From IMG/VR virus record IMGVR_UViG_2778261543_000001: DNA of 20,062 nt; one strand, written 5' to 3'. The notes beneath the pieces are model-generated. The model did not search any database. It was given only the letters and a program-made list of their open reading frames with translations, and was not told where the DNA came from. Below are positions 5,882-20,062 of this stretch, piece by piece. A program made the position numbers and the translations under genes. This stretch comes from a virus. Taxonomy: Duplodnaviria; Heunggongvirae; Uroviricota; Caudoviricetes. Numbering within the stretch: position 1 is the first letter of the stretch; the number at the start of each line of letters is the position of its first letter.

Positions 5882-7176
5882 TGGCATTAAATGAAGGTCA
5901 ACTGGTCACGTATGCTCTGGATGAAATCATCGAAACCGTCCAGAACCTGACGCCAATGGCGTCCAAAGTGACAAAATACACCCCTCCGGCAGAATCCATG
6001 CAACGTTCAAGCAACACCGTGTGGATGCCTGTTGAGCAGGAAGCGCCAACCCAGACTGGCTGGGATTTAACTGGCAACGCAACCGGGATTCTGGAACTCT
6101 CCGTGAAATGCAACATGGGCGATCCGGATAACGATTTCTTCGAGCTTCGTGCAGATGACCTGCGTGATGAGCGTTCTTACCGTCGCCGCATCCAGGCATC
6201 CGCCAAAAAACTGGCGAATAACATTGAGTCAGCGATTGCCAAACAGGCAACTGAAATGGGCTCGCTTGTTGTTCACGATACCCGAGCAATTGGTCCATCT
6301 ACTGGCCTGTCTGGCTGGGATTTTGTGTCTGATGCAGAGCGCCTGATGTTCTCCCGTGAGCTAAACCGCGATATGGGCATCAGTTACTTCCTGAACCCTG
6401 ACGATTACCGCAAAGCAGGCCGCAACCTGGTAGATGGTGACATCTTCGGGCGCGTTCCTGAAGAAGCGTATCGCAACGGTACTATTCAGCGTCAGATTGC
6501 TGGCTTTGATGAAATTCTTCGCTCACCGAAACTTCCGGCAGTTACCAAGTCAACCGCTACTGGTGTAACTGTTTCTGGTGCGCAGAAGTTTAAGCCGCAG
6601 GCATACACCCTTGATACCGATGGTAACAAAGAGAACGTCGACAACCGTGTTGCAACGGTGACCGTATCCTCCACCACCGGATTTAAGCGCGGCGACAAAA
6701 TCAGCTTCACTGGTGTGAAGTTCCTGTCTCAGATGGCGAAGAATGTGCTGACTGATGACGCGACTTTCTCAATCACCCGTGTGATCGATAGTACTCACAT
6801 CGAAATCACGCCGAAGCCGATTGCGCTGGATGACGCGTCACTGACAAAAGAAGAGAAGGCTTACGCGAATGTAAACACCTCTCTTGCTGATACCACACCG
6901 GTAAACGTTCTGAACGTGGCAACAACCACCGCTAACGTGTTCTGGGCTGATGACTCAATCCGCCTGCTGTCTCAGCCGATCCCGGTAACCCATGAACTGT
7001 TTGCTGGCATGAAAACGTCTTCCTTCAGCATTCCTGGTATTGGTGTTAACGGCATCTTCGCAACGCAGGGTGATATCAACACTCTGTCTGGTAAGTGCCG
7101 TATTGCTGTGTGGTATTCAGCATGTGCTGTACGACCAGAGGCAATTGGTGTTGGTCTGCCTAACCAGACCGCGTGA
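5881..7176 (+). CDS. 5: Major capsid (coat) protein, P22 gp5 family (431 aa), diverged from P22 itself
   Basis: 431 aa against 430 for P22 coat. N-terminus MALNEGQ..., the RADDLRDE motif and the C-terminal [13 protein letters not shown] agree with recalled P22 coat, but many internal substitutions are visible, so this is a different allele from the P22-identical terminase. Confidence 0.9.
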
Positions 7177-11729: not shown

Positions 11730-13136
11730 ATGGCTACTTGGCAAGGATCAAATGGCGGATTGTTAGCTGGTATCGGCGGCGTCAACTCAAACGCTCCGAG
11801 CGTAAATGACATCGGCAATACGCTTCAGCTTATCAGGCAGAACAATGATATTGAGCGTTCAGGCGCTAACAATGTTGGGCTGACTGCTTTGCAAGGTCTT
11901 TCAGGTATTGCAGGGGTGTTTCAGCAGGAAAAGCAGGCTCAGCGGCAGAAAGAATTTCAGCAGGCGTACGCTAATGCTTATGCGTCTGGTGATCGCGGTG
12001 CTTTGCGTCAGTTGGCTACTCAATATCCAGACCAGATTGAATCCGTTCGTAAAGGCATGGGATTCATTGATGAAGACCAGCGCAATTCTATCGGCACCTT
12101 AGCGGCTGGCGCACGCCTTGCGGCCTCGTCTCCAGAAGCAATGCAATCATGGCTGCAAAACAACGCCAATGAGCTGGCGCGCGTCGGTGTTGACCCTAAT
12201 AACGTTGCTCAGATGTATCAGCAGAATCCTTCAGGATTTGGTGAGTTTGTTGATCACCTTGGGATGGCTGCTCTTGGTCCGATTGATTACTTCAATGTTC
12301 AGGACAAGATGGCAGGTCGTGAGATTGACCGAGGCAGGCTGGCAGAGACAATCCGCAGCAATCAGGCTGGTGAAGCACTTCAGGCGAGAGGGCAAAACCT
12401 TTCCTATCAGTCAGCAATGACTGGGCACAATATCGCAGCACAACGCTTGGCTCTGGATCAGCAAGAGTTCGGGTTTAAGATGCAGCAAGCGCAGGAAAAG
12501 GCTCAGCAGTTGATTAGCGAAGCACCTAAGCTGTCAGTAAACATGGAAAAAGGCATCGAGACGGCTGTAAACAATGCCACAGCATCATCAAACTCAGCCA
12601 ATTCCATGAGTGCGCTTGCTCAACAGTTCAGAGCAGAAAAACCAACGACCGGTTTGTTCGGTAACGCACAGAACATGTTCGCAAAACTTACCGGAAGCGA
12701 TACGACATTGCGTGATTTGCGCATTCGCCAAAATGCCCTTGTTAACAGTCAGGTTCTTAAATTCCTACCTCCCGGCCCAGCAACGGATAAAGACGTTGAG
12801 ATTGTTCGACAGGGTGCGCCAACTGACATGGATAACCCTGAGACGGTCGCAAGATGGCTTGATGCAATGGCAAACCTTGAGCGACGAAACGCGCAGTTTA
12901 ATGAGTTTAAAGCTGAGTGGATGAGCGCGAATGGCAACCCTGGACAATCGCGTAATGGCGGTCAGATATTGGGGTTGGATGTTAAAAAAGGTGAATCATT
13001 GGGGAGTGCCGTTAAGCGGTATATGTCAATGAATACTGACGCAGCGCCAGCACAAGATTCGACACCTTCAGGAGAACCACGGAATCAGGTTGGATCATAT
13101 ACCTCAAAATCAGGCATTCAATTTACGGTGGAATGA
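11730..13136 (+). CDS. 20: Ejection protein, P22 gp20 type (468 aa)
   Basis: 468 aa (P22 gp20 about 471 aa), in the conserved 7-20-16 order, with an AAGGGG site. Its stop overlaps the gp16 start. Confidence 0.7.
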
Positions 13137-14977
13137 TGAAAGTAACTGCAAACGGTAAGACATTTACCTTTCCTGATGGTACGAGCACCGAAGATATTGG
13201 CACCGCCATTGATGAGTATTTTGCTGGTCAGGCTGTTCAGCAACAAACAGTTAATCAGGCCAATAATGCACCAACACGGGAAGAACCATCATTGATGCAA
13301 CAAGCTGGCGATTGGCTCACTGGTGGTCAAAGTGCAGGGCAAATTGCGGAACAGGCTGGTCGTGGTCTGGTAAACATACCATTTGACGTATTGCAGGGCG
13401 GCGCAAGTCTGATTAATGCAATCAGTCAGGGGCTTGGTGGACCCAAGGTTTTGGATGATGTTTATCGTCCAGTAGACAGACCGACAGACCCCTACGCTCA
13501 AGCTGGAGAAACAATTGGCGGGTATTTAGTTCCAGGAGTTGGAACGGCAGGAAGCATGGCTATTGGATCACTGGCAGAGGCCGCAAATCAGAAAGGTGAT
13601 TTCGCACAAAATGCAGCTAAAAATGCCGGAGTTAACCTTGCCGCTCAGGGTGTTCTTTCCGCAGCAGCAAAGGGAATAGGGCGTGGAATAACGGCTATAA
13701 AAGGTGATATTGCGCCAGAAGTGGCAAAGAAAATTGCCACATCAGAATCGATGGGCGTGACACCAATGACATCTGATGTTATCCCGCCGAAAAATGCTTT
13801 CACTCGCGGACTTACTCAGGATGCTGAGGGGGCTTTGCTCGGGACAGGCTCAAAGCGAGCGGAGCAATATGCAACGCGTAGTAAGCTGGTAAGCAATTAT
13901 TTTGACCGTTTTGGTGAGTACAACCCTGATGATGTGGTGAAATCTCTGACCACCACGTTAAGGGGACGGAAGGATGCCGCTGGCGCTGTTATCAATGACG
14001 TCACCAATAAAATGGGTAATGCCGCAGTTGATACCACAAATACCATGAATGCTCTGAATACAGCGATCGCAAGACAGGAACGGCTTGGGACGTCTGCCAA
14101 TCAAAGCCTGCTTACATCCTTGCGTAACCTACGTGAAGAATTAGCAAACCCTGCAACTGATTTGGATGTTACGTTTGATCTCTTGCGTCAGCACAGAACA
14201 GCATTTAGATCTAATGTTCAGGGAGATGCTATGGTCTTCCCCAACCAGGCAAAAGCAGCTACCAATATGGTAGAGAATGCAATGTCAAAAGACCTTCGTA
14301 ACGCAGTTGCAAAAAACCTCGGTGCATCAGACGCAGCAAAATACCTTAAAGCAAATTCCGATTATGCAAACGTTTATAATAAGGTTCTTAATAAAAACAT
14401 TGCTAACAAGCTCAACAAGGCAAGCAGTGAAGCCAGTCCTGAACTTATAAATACCGTTGTATTAAGCAGAAAACCATCTGACGTGAAACGAATCTGGAGC
14501 GCACTGGATGATAAAGGGAAAGATGCTATGCGTGCAGCTTACGTCAGCAAAATAGCGGAAAAGGCCGGTGACTCTCCAGCCAAGTTCATCACTGAAGTTA
14601 ATAAGCTGAAATCTCAGTCAGGTGGTGAAATTTACAACACTATTTTTTCTGGAAAGCACATGAAAGAGCTTGATGCTCTTCATGAAGTTCTACAGCAAAC
14701 AGCAAGGTCAGACACCGCAAATGTAGTAACTCAGACGGGGCAATCGCAAGCCAACAGGATAAGGACGATTGGCGCAACTGCGACTCTTGGCGTATCAATG
14801 GGGCTTGAGGCTGGTTTCGGTGCAATGATGCGCTTGTATGAATCCAAAGCAGCAAGGAATGCGCTCTTACGTCTGGCAAACACCAAAGCTGGAACGCCAG
14901 CTTATGAAAGAGCGCTAAATAATGCTGCAAATGCGATACGTCCTATACTTTCAAGCCAAATTACAGCAGAACAATAG
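13133..14977 (+). CDS. 16: Ejection protein, P22 gp16 type (614 aa)
   Basis: 614 aa (P22 gp16 about 609 aa). It is the last gene of the 7-20-16 block and starts in the ATGATG at 13133-13138, which contains the gp20 stop (TGA, 13134-13136). Confidence 0.7.
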
Positions 14978-15026
14978 ATAAATAATTAACTAAGCACATA
15001 ACTACTGACAGATAACCAACGCAACG

Positions 15027-15050
15027 ACCCAGCTTCGGCTGGTTTTTTTA
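15027..15050 (+). terminator. Rho-independent terminator between gp16 and the tailspike gene
   Basis: CCAGC-TTCG-GCTGG hairpin (15029-15042) followed by a run of seven T, about 50 nt after the gp16 stop. Confidence 0.6.
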
Positions 15051-15107
15051 TGCCCAAAATTCACCGTAGCCACGCTGCGGCGTTTCCTTGTATCTGGAGC
15101 AAATTAA

Positions 15108-17057
15108 ATGACAGACATTACAGCCAATGTTGTAATTGGGATGCCTTCGCAACTCTTCACTATGGCTCGTTCTTTTAAAGCCGTAGCCAATGGCAAAATT
15201 TATATCGGTAAAATTGACACTGACCCGGTAAATCCTGAAAACCAGATTCCGGTTTATATAGAGAACGAAGACGGTTCTCACGTTCCTGTTTCGCAACCAA
15301 TTATCATTAACGCTGCTGGTTATCCTGTATATAACGGGCAGATTGCCAAGTTCGTAACTGTGCAAGGCCATTCTATGGCTGTTTATGATGCATACGGTGC
15401 TCAGCAGTTTTATTTTCCGAATGTTCTGAAGTACGATCCTGACAGATTGCGACAGGATTTAGCGCTTCCAACAGGCGCTGAGCTTGTAGGCGTGCAACCA
15501 CAAGGAAATCTTTCGCAAGTCATTCAGTTTGTATCTCCAGAGCAGTTTGGCGCCATCGGAGATGGTACGGTTCATCCATTATCTGAGCGTTATGCGACTC
15601 TTGCAGCAGCGCAGGCTGTATACCCATTCGTAACATCTCTGACCCAGACAATTGACTGGGCAGCGTGTCAGGCGGCTGAGAACTATGCGCGTGGTAAAAC
15701 AGCGGTAAGATGCCCTTTCTACGCCAAGTATCATCTTGGCAACAATTATCTTGAGCTAAGCGAGAAAAGTAAATGGTATGGCAATGACAATCCCACTATA
15801 GATCGCCCATGCACCACTATCATACGAGAGGGAAATGCTGGCAGCTTCGGAAGAAATGCAATCGTCCGCGTTATGAGCTCTAGCGAAGCAGGAAGTTCGG
15901 ATGAATTTGTTCGCGGAGTCGTTTTCAAAGGTTTCTATTTATCTAGAAACCGCCCTCGTCGATTTAACAGCAAGTATGAAGGGTCAATAGGCTTTCATGT
16001 TAACTTTGCAATTAGAGCAGATATCGACGTGGCAATAAGCGGCTGTGAATATGGCCTTTTTGGCTATGGGTGCTGGGGACTGGTTGGTAGGGTTCGCGTG
16101 GATTCATGCCATAAATCTATTTGGCTGGATCCTGACACCGCAACTCCAGAGCATACCAACCCAGGCGGTTCAATAACGGCTCTTGATTTACGCGTAGAGG
16201 TGGATGCATGCGTCTACGGACCAGTGCTTCGACATGTGCAATATAGTAGAATTTCTGGATGGGTCGAAGGAATGCTTATTGATTCCGCAGTATACCCAAT
16301 CTATGACTACACCAACGAAACAGCTATAGCTATTACGGCATATGGATGCGATGGTTTAGATATAGAAAATCTAGGAATTGAAGCCTGGCAGGGAGTGATG
16401 GTTTACGCCAATTCCAGTACAGTATCCACTGGGATAAAATGGAATCAAGGAGCATTACTAACAAATACAACCGGTAAACACGGGCCATACCAGGCCATGG
16501 CAGCACTTACTGGCGCAACAGAATTGTTCACTTTACCATCGACTAACAACTCATATTTCTATGCAAAAAGTGGAGGCCTACTTAAGTTAAGAAATATGAC
16601 AGGAGATATGTCGACCGCTTCTTTCGCAAATACATTCCTTGTTACGGTTGATGCTGACTCTCGATTCTTAATGGAGAATACTGGCATTTACTTTGGAAGT
16701 AGTCGACTAATTGCCCCCGGCAATTGGGAGAATATTGAATTTATCAACGATAGATTCATGCAGAACTATATGGTGCCAGCTGGGTACTCATATGAAGGAC
16801 GCGGTATTTGTACTGCTAGCGCATGGTCAAACAAGACGATAAATGCCGGCGATGGTAGGGTTACACTTGATGCCCCTACTGGGTGGAAAATTATTGATTT
16901 TGTGGCCTACGTAATAACAAGCACCATATCACAAACTAGAAGCTACTCTCCTGTAGGAGTTGTATCCACATCAGATACGCGGATTATTCTGCAGACTGGT
17001 GTGGACACTACAGGTTTTTCTGTAACCTACAAACTAAGACTAAAGGTAATAAAGTAG
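15108..17057 (+). CDS. 9: Tailspike protein (649 aa): P22 gp9-like N-terminal head-binding domain fused to an unrecognised receptor-binding domain
   Basis: The first ~110 aa ([11 protein letters not shown]...[36 protein letters not shown]...[12 protein letters not shown]) match the recalled P22 gp9 head-binding domain. The rest has no resemblance to the P22 endorhamnosidase domain, though its Gly/Asn/Ser/Thr-rich repetitive composition would suit a beta-helix fold. TGGAG site upstream. Confidence 0.9.
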
Positions 17058-17061
17058 AGTG

Positions 17062-17086
17062 AAAGCCCCTTACGGGGCTTTTTTAT
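17062..17086. terminator. Terminator hairpin between the convergent tailspike and gtrC-like genes
   Basis: AAAGCCCC-TTAC-GGGGCTTT hairpin (17062-17081) with a T-run to 17086, 5 nt after the tailspike stop and overlapping the stop of the - strand gene. The T-tract follows only on the + strand, so termination of the minus-strand gtr transcript is less certain. Confidence 0.6.
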
Positions 17087-18603
17087 ATGCCTGTTTTTAT
17101 TCTGTGGTTGTAAACCATTATTATCATGCCATTGTAACTTAGAACTTCATCAGGACTGCCAATAGTAGCCTCGACTCCTTTCCTACATAAATCTATGTCT
17201 GCGCACTGATCTCCAGTATTGCCCTTCCTTAAAGCTATGAACTGTCGTTCAGGTTTTGATTCTACAAATTCATTTGTGTGCCAAAACTTCATTGTTTGAA
17301 CGCGGGCATCCTTGAAGTTGATAACCCCTGTTTTTTTATGAAAGTAAACAGGGGTTATATGTATGTCTCCGCCAGACAGCCAATTCACGCCCATAGACAT
17401 CCCCCAAAAACTACCATATCCGTAAGTAAGATCATGATGCTTAAGGAAGTCTATATATGAATTGACAGGGTTATCGTTAAGCTTGTAGCGAATATTCATT
17501 AATGAGTAGCCATAAATGCACGTAGCAAAACTTAACAGCAAAGGAATTACTAATAATATAGCTCGTTTAGAAGATGCTGCTACTGACAATAGCACGATCA
17601 CCATTGGGGCAATATTAAGATAAAATCTTTGATGGGGAGTTTGATCACCTATTATTGAAGATGAGTATATTCCTGCTATAGACATGATTGAAAATATTGC
17701 AATGTAGCGAGCCGCACCGCCTCGCTTTATGCATATGAACACGGCATATAAGCATGTAATAGACCATGTAAAAAATATTGCATACCTGAAATACTCGTTG
17801 CCTATATTCGTTATTGGCAACATCTTGGCTGTGATATCAACAGCAAGCCTGGCATTATCAAGCATAACATCAAAAGGTGCCAAGTGGAAAGAGTGAACAG
17901 GAAGACCTATAATCTTTTGAATTACATTTGAGAAAGCCAATGCAAAAAACACAAAGTATATAATGAAATTTCTTTTTGTGGTTTTCTCAAAAACGATGAT
18001 AGCACACTCAGTAATTATCATTGGTAGGAAAAAAGCCGCCAGAAGCCATGGATCAGACGCGCTCGCTAGCAGCGAAATCAAAGAGCATACAAACGGTATA
18101 AATATGTTTTTGCTTTTTAAGCTTAACACAAACAAAGAAAAAACTACGAACCCATACGCATTAGTAGAGTTATGCGAAAATGGGTGTGAGAAATAACCGT
18201 GTCTGTATAGGTCTGGAGAAACAAATGTTATGCATATTAAAGCAATTAAAGCTAGATAGTTACCTGAACATGACCTAACCATTTCTGTTACGCATGCTGT
18301 GATAACAAAAATAAATATTGCGCTTGATATCACTAATGGCAACAGACCATCATCACCGAGCAGTAAAAACAAAGCAAAGTTTACTGGATAAACTGTAAAA
18401 TACCAGTTATCAAATGTTGGTTGCCATTGAGTAAAAGAACTCCATCCACTGTCCAGGAATGCCCTCCAAACTATTGGGCTATTGGCGGCATCTGCATCCC
18501 CTGACCATAAGTAGCTGTGTCGCGATGTAAGATAAAGAGACACGCAAAAAGATGCGAGATATAAAAAACACCAAAAAGCTCTGCTATCAGATATCCTATT
18601 CAT
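17083..18603 (-). CDS. GtrC-like serotype-specific O-antigen glucosyltransferase (polytopic inner-membrane protein, 506 aa); specificity unknown
   Basis: Third gene of a gtrA-gtrB-gtrX arrangement, with its start overlapping the gtrB stop (ATGA). The protein is very hydrophobic with many predicted membrane spans and a ~130-aa hydrophilic C-terminal domain. AT-rich codon usage. I do not recognise it as a specific named Gtr type. Confidence 0.7.
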
Positions 18604-19523
18604 GATTTACTAACACCCTTTAATATATAACGAGGCCTATTTTTGGACTCAACATATATCCTGCCAATGTACTCACCAAGAACGCCAATGCCAATCAATT
18701 GAACCCCGCCAAGGAACAGAATAGAGACAAGCAGGGATGGATATCCACGCACAGCATTGCCGAAGGCCAGTGTGTCGATAATCATCCAAGCACCGTACAG
18801 AAACGCCACTCCAGCTACGAACAGGCCAATGTAAGTCCACATGCGCAACGGGAAAGTAGAGAAGCTTGTGATCCCCTCAAGTGCCAGGTTCCACAGTTTC
18901 CATCCATTAAATTTAGTACTGCCTGCCACTCGTTCTGCGCGTGCATACTCGACAACATCTGTGCGACCGCCAACCCAACTCAGCACACCTTTCATAAAAA
19001 GGTTGCGCTCTGGCATAAGCTTAATGTTTTCGACAACTTCACGGCTCATTAACCGGAAATCGCCAACGTTTTCTTCTATCTTTGGGTTGCTGATTTTGTT
19101 ATGAAGCTTATAGAACCACTCAGCAGATTTACGTTTTAGTCGGCTGTCAGTTGAGCGATCAGAGCGCTTAGCAAGAACCATATCCGCGCCGGCCTGCCAC
19201 TTCTCAATAAGATGAGGGATGACTTCAATCGGGTCCTGCAGGTCAACGTCAATTGGAATTACAGCCTCTCCGGTTGCATGTTCTAACCCTGCAAACAATG
19301 CTGGTTCTTTACCAAAGTTGCGTGTAAATGACAGTGGAACAACCAGCGGGTCTGAAACAGCCAGAGCATTAATAATTGACTCCGTAGCGTCTTTACTTCC
19401 GTCATTTATGAATACAATTTCCACTTCATATGGCTTCAACTCTTCGAATTCACGTACCGTTTTATAGAAAATTGGTATCGCTTCTTCTTCATTGAGGACA
19501 GGAACAACCAGAGATATCTTCAT
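18600..19523 (-). CDS. gtrB: Bactoprenol glucosyltransferase GtrB (GT2 family, 307 aa)
   Basis: N-terminal GT2 fold signature ([14 protein letters not shown]...INDGSKD...) with a DxD-type motif (PIDVDLQDP) and two C-terminal hydrophobic helices, as in GtrB. Flanked by gtrA and the gtrC-like gene with ATGA overlaps. Confidence 0.9.
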
Positions 19524-19882
19524 TTCGCATTCCTAAAGACAATGAGCTTTGAATAGACGAAACCGCACACCAGGCTGATGGCGGAGAAAGTGATAAGGGT
19601 GACCATTGGAGGAAGTGCACATCTATCAGCAGCCCATCCAATAGTTGCACTCAGTGTTCCCATGAACCCGACATATAACATGTAGCGCATCGTTGTAGTT
19701 GATGCTTTGAATGTGAATTTTGCATTCGCGAAGAAGCTAAAACTCACAGCCACAACAAAACCTGCGAAGTTTGCCAGAGCCTGATTGGTATGCGCGGCAT
19801 AGATACATACACCAAAAACCACCCAGTGTATAAGTGTGTTCAGCACGCCAATCGAGGTGTACTTTGCAAATAGCTTTAACAT
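19520..19882 (-). CDS. gtrA: GtrA, small membrane protein (flippase for undecaprenyl-phosphate glucose), 120 aa
   Basis: 120 aa with four hydrophobic segments, first gene of the operon, typical GtrA size and position. Confidence 0.85.
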
Positions 19883-19920
19883 TTCTTCTATCAGCTAATA
19901 ATCAAAGGCATGAAGTCTAT

Positions 19921-20062
19921 TGGATTTGCCCCTATATTTCCAGACACCTGTTATCACTTAACCCATTACTGGCTTGCTGCCGTAGATATTCCCGTGGCGA
20001 GCGATAACCCAGTGCACTATGCGGATGCCATTCGTTATAATGCTCGAACGCCTCTGCAAGGT
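19921..20062 (-). mobile_element. IS2 insertion sequence, right terminal inverted repeat plus 3' end of the transposase gene; truncated by the window edge
   Basis: 19921-19961 (TGGATTTGCCCCTATATTTCCAGACACCTGTTATCACTTAA) matches the IS2 right inverted repeat as I recall it, with one mismatch. The adjoining minus-strand reading frame ends in a typical IS2 transposase C-terminus. Confidence 0.8.
19932..20062 (-). CDS. insD: IS2 transposase (orfB/InsD) C-terminal fragment; 5' part lies outside the window
   Basis: Minus-strand translation from the window edge reads ...[42 protein letters not shown], with the stop at 19932-19934. This is the conserved IS3-family integrase-fold C-terminus and matches the recalled IS2 InsD tail. 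Confidence 0.75.

Follow-up and report, generated by a model that had tools for sequence, protein, structure and literature searches.

A candidate IS2::gtr hybrid promoter with minicircle-junction geometry upstream of a prophage gtrABC operon

What drives a prophage gtrABC operon when an insertion sequence ends only a few dozen bases upstream of its first gene? The window examined here raises this question. It is a stretch of 20062 bp that, by exact-protein look-up, constitutes the whole of contig NLNW01000079.1 (assembly GCA_002229875.1), which is recorded for two samples. An initial annotation had placed an IS2 end just upstream of gtrA and proposed that it displaced a P22-type phase-variable promoter controlled by Dam and OxyR, after which the operon would either be transcribed by read-through or from a hybrid promoter, or else be silenced. 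The distinction is of interest, as gtr operons alter the O-antigen and with it serotype, phage receptor recognition, and immune recognition. Our literature search found no paper dealing with an IS element in front of E. coli gtrA, no yfdG start-site data, and no mention of accession NLNW01000079.1/GCA_002229875.1.

The gtrABC operon and the IS2 end upstream of it

The contig contains the late/structural half of a P22-like prophage together with gtrCBA. Three co-oriented ORFs on the minus strand, in which neighbors share 4-bp overlaps, make up the operon. The first is gtrA (19520-19882, start codon at 19882-19880), which encodes a 120-aa member of the bactoprenol-linked glucose flippase family (PF04138, E = 1.9e-13) and carries a yfdG/GtrA annotation in homologous genomes. 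It is followed by gtrB (18600-19523), encoding a 307-aa bactoprenol glucosyltransferase of the GT2 type (PF00535, E = 1.4e-30), and by a full-length gtrC-type gene for a GtrI-like serotype-specific glucosyltransferase of 506 aa (17083-18603). Because GtrA matches PF04138, GtrB matches PF00535, and the third protein is GtrI-like, the operon reads as an intact gtrABC-type cluster. Its gtrAB DNA is 95-97% identical to that of E. coli. Aligned across 95% of its length, the gtrC-type protein shares 39.8% identity with the GtrI protein of Shigella phage SfI (E = 5e-96). It had no Pfam or NCBIfam match in profile searches, a nucleotide search of 5426 complete E. coli genomes did not find the DNA of its gene, and only two recorded contigs encode exactly this protein. 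Its product is probably an uncharacterized serotype-specific glucosyltransferase.

The operon lies downstream of a P22-type tailspike gene, which is encoded on the plus strand. The tailspike gene (15108-17057) follows a gp16-like gene (13133-14977) after ~130 bp (14977-15108), and there is no immI-type region (ant/arc/mnt) between the two, unlike the situation in P22. In related prophages (Logan contigs L003 and L004), Arc/Mnt-like and HNH genes adjoin the tailspike gene.

Upstream of gtrA, the proposed IS2 end was confirmed. The minus strand of positions 19921-20062, at which point the contig stops, corresponds to the 3' end of this IS3 family element and agrees with the final 142 bp of E. 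coli K-12 IS2A at 135/142 positions, including all of the terminal 26 bp. The short-read assembly broke at this repeat and only 142 bp of IS2 are readable, a piece that has thousands of matches in E. coli genomes. The right inverted repeat (IRR), which is 41 bp long in IS2 (PMC3299598), occupies 19921-19961 (minus strand) and agrees with the K-12 IS2A IRR at 40/41 positions, the single mismatch being at position 27 from the tip. The tip, ...GGGGCAAATCCA-3' at 19921, ends in CA-3' as does the terminal right inverted repeat of IS2, and the plus strand from 19921 (TGGATTTGCCCCTATATTTCCAGACACCTGTTATCACTTAA) is the reverse complement of the IS2 IRR. Translation of the minus strand at 19932-20060 yields the C-terminal 42 codons plus the stop of OrfB/InsD, and this peptide matches positions 260-301/301 of the NCBIfam model NF006918, 'IS2 transposase TnpB' (E = 2.4e-24). 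The orfB stop codon, TAG at 19934-19932, falls within the IRR, 11 bp from the IS2 tip. Two further particulars of the initial annotation held up as well: the OrfB frame places the transposase on the same (minus) strand as gtrABC, and the gap between the gtrA ATG and the IS2 tip is exactly 38 bp (19883-19920).

Assuming a simple insertion of a complete element, the 5-bp target-site duplication would be predicted at 19916-19920 (TCTAT on the plus strand, ATAGA on the minus strand), and the IRL-side junction would read ...GGGGGCCAGTCTA followed by TCTAT and CATCCAAGTCTCAATCGATCG. Duplications of 5 bp flank both K-12 IS2A (ATTAC) and a complete IS2 in E. coli F719 (TCCTA). A search of metagenome contigs for the predicted IRL-side junction yielded no match, and looking up the exact GtrA and GtrC proteins led to no contig longer than the window. 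The alternative to simple insertion would be a deletion of int mediated by IS2. The IS2 of E. coli F719 (NZ_OY754392.1; L002 3803-5133) represents an independent insertion upstream of a gtrA in the same orientation. It is 1331 bp in length, lies next to dacD at 321 bp from the ATG, and leaves the native gtr promoter intact. On the IRL side, its flank GCAAATCCTA is similar to the IRR tip GCAAATCCA.

The initial annotation had suggested a comparison with an uninterrupted allele, and such alleles proved to be plentiful. In hundreds of E. coli genomes, the match to the gtrA side extends precisely to base 19920, beyond which the sequence is native, while Logan contigs L003 and L004 encode an identical GtrA preceded by the identical 38 bp and then by native sequence. 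Position 19920 is accordingly a true homology break, at which the native upstream control DNA has been displaced. Native alleles run from the argW tRNA through intS and an intergenic region of 151 bp to gtrA, as in the K-12 CPS-53 prophage, and the int-gtrA intergenic region is present in ~640/5426 complete E. coli genomes. The exact IS2-gtrA junction of the window was absent from the same 5426 genomes, one record of which has IS2 near gtrA at a different site, and the IRR-side junction was also absent from GTDB species representatives (searched with 50-nt and 25-nt patterns) and from metagenome contigs. The junction is known from one draft assembly only.

The int-gtrA spacer of native E. coli alleles also includes a conserved imperfect hairpin, CACAAAGCCTTGCA...TGCAAAGATTTGTG, followed by a T-run (L001 3560-3600). 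Hairpin and T-run both occur in P22 (L007 about 6150-6200), and the hairpin core is found next to intS in ~1900 E. coli genomes. It may serve as an int terminator or as a recombination-protein site; its fold was no better than that of shuffled sequence (z = 0.23), with a local stem present.

The native gtr promoter and the question of phase variation

The native promoter can be located by reference to P22, in which the mapped gtr transcription start precedes the gtrA start codon by 25 bp and follows GATC4 by 33 bp, with GATC sites at -110, -97, -46, and -33 (PMC2909390). Upstream of gtrA, P22 and E. coli can be aligned without a gap across the last 63 bp and share a common layout of GATC, 17 nt, TA(C/G)ACT, 6 nt, start, 25 nt, and ATG. 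When the start is set 25 nt before the ATG, the P22 GATC sites are computed at -110, -97, -46, and -33, which are the published positions. From this gapless alignment and the mapped P22 start, the native -10 of the window is therefore predicted to be the TAGACT hexamer at 19919-19914 on the minus strand (TACACT in P22), a hexamer that is the same as the first 6 bp of the IS2 IRL. By the same homology, the transcription start is predicted at 19907 (minus strand), 25 nt upstream of the gtrA ATG.

The native E. coli alleles have TGA in front of the -10, forming an extended -10 with its TG at -15/-14, and the P22 equivalent reads TGC TACACT. Both TAGACT and the preceding TG are conserved in 4/4 native E. 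coli alleles aligned. The native -35 is a poor hexamer, TCGATC, which contains the -33 GATC. Overall, the E. coli promoter looks like the P22 promoter minus an OxyR/GATC module or, equally, the P22 promoter looks like the E. coli promoter plus such a module. The single E. coli gtr GATC is situated within a perfect 10-bp palindrome, ATCGATCGAT, that extends from -36 to -27 (L001 3535-3544) and stands at the position of P22 GATC4.

The window has kept a defined portion of this promoter. Its retained native gtrA leader (19883-19920, minus strand) consists of 1 bp, the -10, the start site, and the 5' UTR, and is without the -35, the GATC, and the extended -10 TG. That these 38 bp still hold the native -10 and start site had gone unremarked in the initial annotation. 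The core matches the P22-type core, with the -10 located ~32-37 nt and the predicted start 25 nt before the gtrA ATG. A promoter scan detected no independent promoter within 19883-19920, and the 38 bp accommodate only a -10 and a start.

The view that a P22-type Dam/OxyR phase-variable promoter had been displaced did not survive comparison with the native alleles. It is correct that the 38 bp lack GATC, as there are 0 GATC in all of 19883-20062, and this is not the P22 pattern of four GATC arranged in pairs (-110/-97 and -46/-33). However, the native E. coli alleles (L001, K-12 CPS-53, and L003) themselves have a single proximal GATC at -33, to which some alleles add a further GATC in the int stop codon near -128. 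In the alignment, a block of ~70 bp that holds GATC1-3 together with the OxyR A and B half-sites in P22 is missing from the native E. coli alleles. Scanning for the OxyR half-site consensus gave the P22 A, B, and C half-sites scores of 8, 10, and 8 of 10 at the expected positions, whereas the same scan returned no half-sites of at least 8/10 in either the native E. coli alleles or the window. In Salmonella, phase variation is not seen in a gtr operon that has a single GATC and lacks an OxyR site (Broadbent et al., PMC2909390). Under the published predictive rule, the native promoter of the E. coli lineage is expected not to be phase-variable. Loss of phase variation was rejected as a consequence of the insertion, given that the native alleles are without the module and that the reduced signature is not phase-variable in Salmonella (PMC2909390). 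What IS2 removed would instead be parts of a plain extended -10 promoter with one Dam site, namely the native -35, the GATC, and the TG. In P22, Dam status also acts directly on the core promoter (PMC2909390), and any such direct effect would be lost in the window allele. These comparisons correct an over-generalization, as the P22/Salmonella Dam-OxyR module is absent from the common E. coli argW/intS-type gtr promoters.

A putative hybrid promoter at the IS2-gtrA junction

The IS2 tip is located exactly 1 bp upstream of the native -10 TAGACT, with a single native base, A at 19920 (minus strand), between the two. An outward -35 hexamer, TGGAAA, can be assigned within the IRR at 19937-19942 on the minus strand, its position being derived from the published 17-bp spacing of Pjunc and the window sequence, and it thus has the same orientation as gtrA. 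The spacer between TGGAAA and TAGACT, TATAGGGGCAAATCCAA, is 17 nt in length (16 IRR bases + 1). Read on the gtrA strand, the junction runs ...GTGTC TGGAAA TATAGGGGCAAATCCA up to the IS2 boundary and continues with A TAGACT TCATGC C... beyond it.

The same arrangement is found in Pjunc, the IS2 minicircle-junction promoter, which reportedly goes back to the work of Lewis et al. in 2004 and Szeverenyi et al. in 1996. Pjunc forms when IRR and IRL abut upon circularization of IS2 and draws its Pribnow box from the TA terminus of the IRL (PMC3299598; PMC3219604), while its -35 reads outward from the IS2 right end (PMC3219604). Its 17-bp spacer is mandatory and is reached only with a 1-bp junction spacer (PMC3219604; PMC3299598), and the promoter has been described as 'more powerful' than the internal promoter of IS2 and as essential for the second transposition step (PMC3219604; PMC3299598). 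We deduced the Pjunc hexamers from these published spacing statements together with the IS2 sequence, in which the IRL begins TAGACT. A modelled K-12 junction (IRR + N + IRL) is identical to the window from the -35 through TAGACT, except for the free spacer base, and the A at 19920 would act as the 1-bp minicircle-junction spacer. The hybrid promoter with an outward -35 in the IS2 end that had been suggested initially can now be given a specific form, i.e., a putative TGGAAA located 17 bp from TAGACT with the geometry of Pjunc. A complete outward promoter inside the IS2 end was rejected, as a published assay detected no promoter activity from the terminal 150 bp of IS2 on their own (PMC12095673). 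Therefore, any activity would have to come from the hybrid, for which the flanking -10 would be needed.

In the scenario that we propose, IS2, oriented like gtrABC, would have inserted into the int-gtrA region of a P22-like prophage and thereby separated the -10 from its native -35 (TCGATC, with the -33 GATC) and from the extended -10 TG. In the case of a complete IS2, the displaced native elements would now be found ~1.3 kb upstream. TAGACT, the start site, and the leader would have been kept, with the TGGAAA of the IRR becoming the new -35, and the hybrid would transcribe gtrABC constitutively from about the native start (near 19907), with no contribution from the DNA that formerly adjoined it upstream. 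Transcripts of the IS2 transposase gene reading through into gtrA would augment this output weakly. A constitutive IS2::gtr hybrid promoter with Pjunc geometry is in our judgment the best explanation of the locus and a reasonably probable one. The sequence shows its anatomy, its homology-based assignment, and its identity with the Pjunc elements, while we infer its activity and strength. Several considerations weigh against its activity: binding of the IRR by transposase or OrfAB could occlude the -35, the extended -10 TG, which is shared by the native promoter and P22, was destroyed by the insertion, the discriminator and start region depart from those of Pjunc, and the consensus score of the hybrid is low.

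The insertion may instead have silenced or strongly reduced gtrABC, in which case it would be an ordinary neutral or loss-of-function IS event in a prophage accessory operon. Such an outcome would fit the loss of the native TG (-15/-14) and -35, as well as the consensus score of the hybrid, which is 8/12 (4/6 each for TGGAAA and TAGACT) and was not flagged as a promoter by a generic promoter scan. It would also be in keeping with the commonness of IS elements in prophages (103 distinct IS2 flanks occur in viral contigs) and with the occurrence of the junction in one assembly only. However, the same hexamers and spacing form a promoter that has been called powerful and essential (PMC3299598; PMC3219604), and all of the gtr ORFs (3/3) are intact. 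Furthermore, in ampC::IS2 a -35 provided by IS2 at 17 bp raised activity 20-fold by the same route, despite the weakness of that -35, according to the passage of PMC9330008 that cites Jaurin and Normark 1983. We consider silencing to be rather unlikely. There is likewise little probability, and in this case very little, that the junction is an assembly artefact or that a solo IS2 end fragment is present instead of a full element. The contig does end 142 bp into a multicopy repeat, but the native sequence breaks exactly at the IS2 terminal base, as in a true transposition junction, the contig is recorded for two samples, and a solo IRR would still yield the same hybrid promoter.

It is also conceivable that gtrABC is transcribed mainly by read-through from IS2, whether from the PIRL transposase transcript or from transcription entering from upstream, with only a minor role for the hybrid. 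Read-through, which the initial annotation had also raised, is physically possible. The transposase is on the gtrABC strand, a terminator could not fit between the IS2 tip and the orfB stop, which lies inside the IRR only 11 bp away, and a scan of 19400-20062 identified no terminator-like site on either strand. Nevertheless, this reading would leave the exact Pjunc geometry as an unexplained coincidence, and it faces the possibility of a block by the element itself, as IS2 can be polar and rho-dependent in its effect. Reference titles listed in PMC12095673 mention an IS2 insertion in the gal operon that is polar and rho-related. PIRL is moreover a weak extended -10 promoter that is repressed by OrfA (PMC3299598; PMC3219604). 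Because the internal IS2 promoter is weak and OrfA-repressed, we rank read-through as a minor contributor and view it as an unlikely principal source of gtrABC transcription.

We also considered how often an IS2 insertion would create such a configuration. Within the native intergenic region, 3/143 insertion positions place any -10-like hexamer at 17 bp and 1/143 uses the real gtr -10 at this distance. Among the distinct IS2 IRR flanks in viral contigs, 0/103 have N-TAGACT, while a -10-like hexamer of any kind occurs at the 17-bp offset in 1/103, compared with 0-7 at control offsets. The idea that IS2 is drawn to mimics of the IRL tip was rejected as a general preference, based upon the limited likeness to the IRL (15/42) and the 1/103 flanks. 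The configuration is either a ~1% accident or the result of selection for expression. If the insertion was selected, it would have re-created a strong junction promoter and locked a rare GtrI-like operon ON, e.g., for phage resistance or immune evasion. Because the -35 is within the transposase-binding part of the IRR, gtr expression would then also be coupled to transposase/OrfAB occupancy. We find this selective account quite doubtful.

Relation to known promoters and insertions

Should the IS2::gtr hybrid promoter be active, the strain would express a rare GtrI-like modification from an IS2-derived promoter, independently of the prophage upstream DNA. The locus would serve as a clean natural example of an outward IS2 -35 capturing a resident -10, a capture that works only at one exact base position, as the 17-bp spacing is mandatory. 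It is a further instance of a known IS effect, as in ampC::IS2, rather than a new mechanism.

With respect to its genomic setting, the window is closest to the E. coli K-12 CPS-53 yfdGHI and argW-intS-gtrABC modules, with which it shares the same gene order and a near-identical int-gtrA region, but, unlike in these modules, its intergenic region is occupied by IS2 and its third gene is a different one. The P22 gtr promoter has a homologous gtrA leader, in which GATC4 is spaced from the -10, the start, and the ATG as it is in native E. coli alleles. An extended -10 (TGn + TAnACT) is present in both P22 gtr and native E. coli gtr, whereas the window allele is, compared with P22 gtr, also without GATC4 and the -35. 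Pjunc has the same -35 TGGAAA, 17-bp spacer, and -10 TAGACT as the window, yet the -10 of the window is chromosomal, being that of native gtr, and not the tip of an IRL; similarity between the window flank and the IRL ends after 6 bp and amounts to 15/42 overall. The two also differ in their discriminator and start region, and the window hybrid is permanent and reads into gtrABC, whereas Pjunc is transient and reads into the transposase gene. In ampC::IS2 of E. coli K-12, IS2 likewise lies between a resident -35 and -10 and provides a new -35 at the optimal 17 bp. The target there was a beta-lactamase gene under laboratory selection, whereas in the window it is a prophage O-antigen glucosylation operon in a natural isolate, and, unlike in ampC::IS2, the resident -10 captured in the window also equals the junction -10 of IS2 itself.
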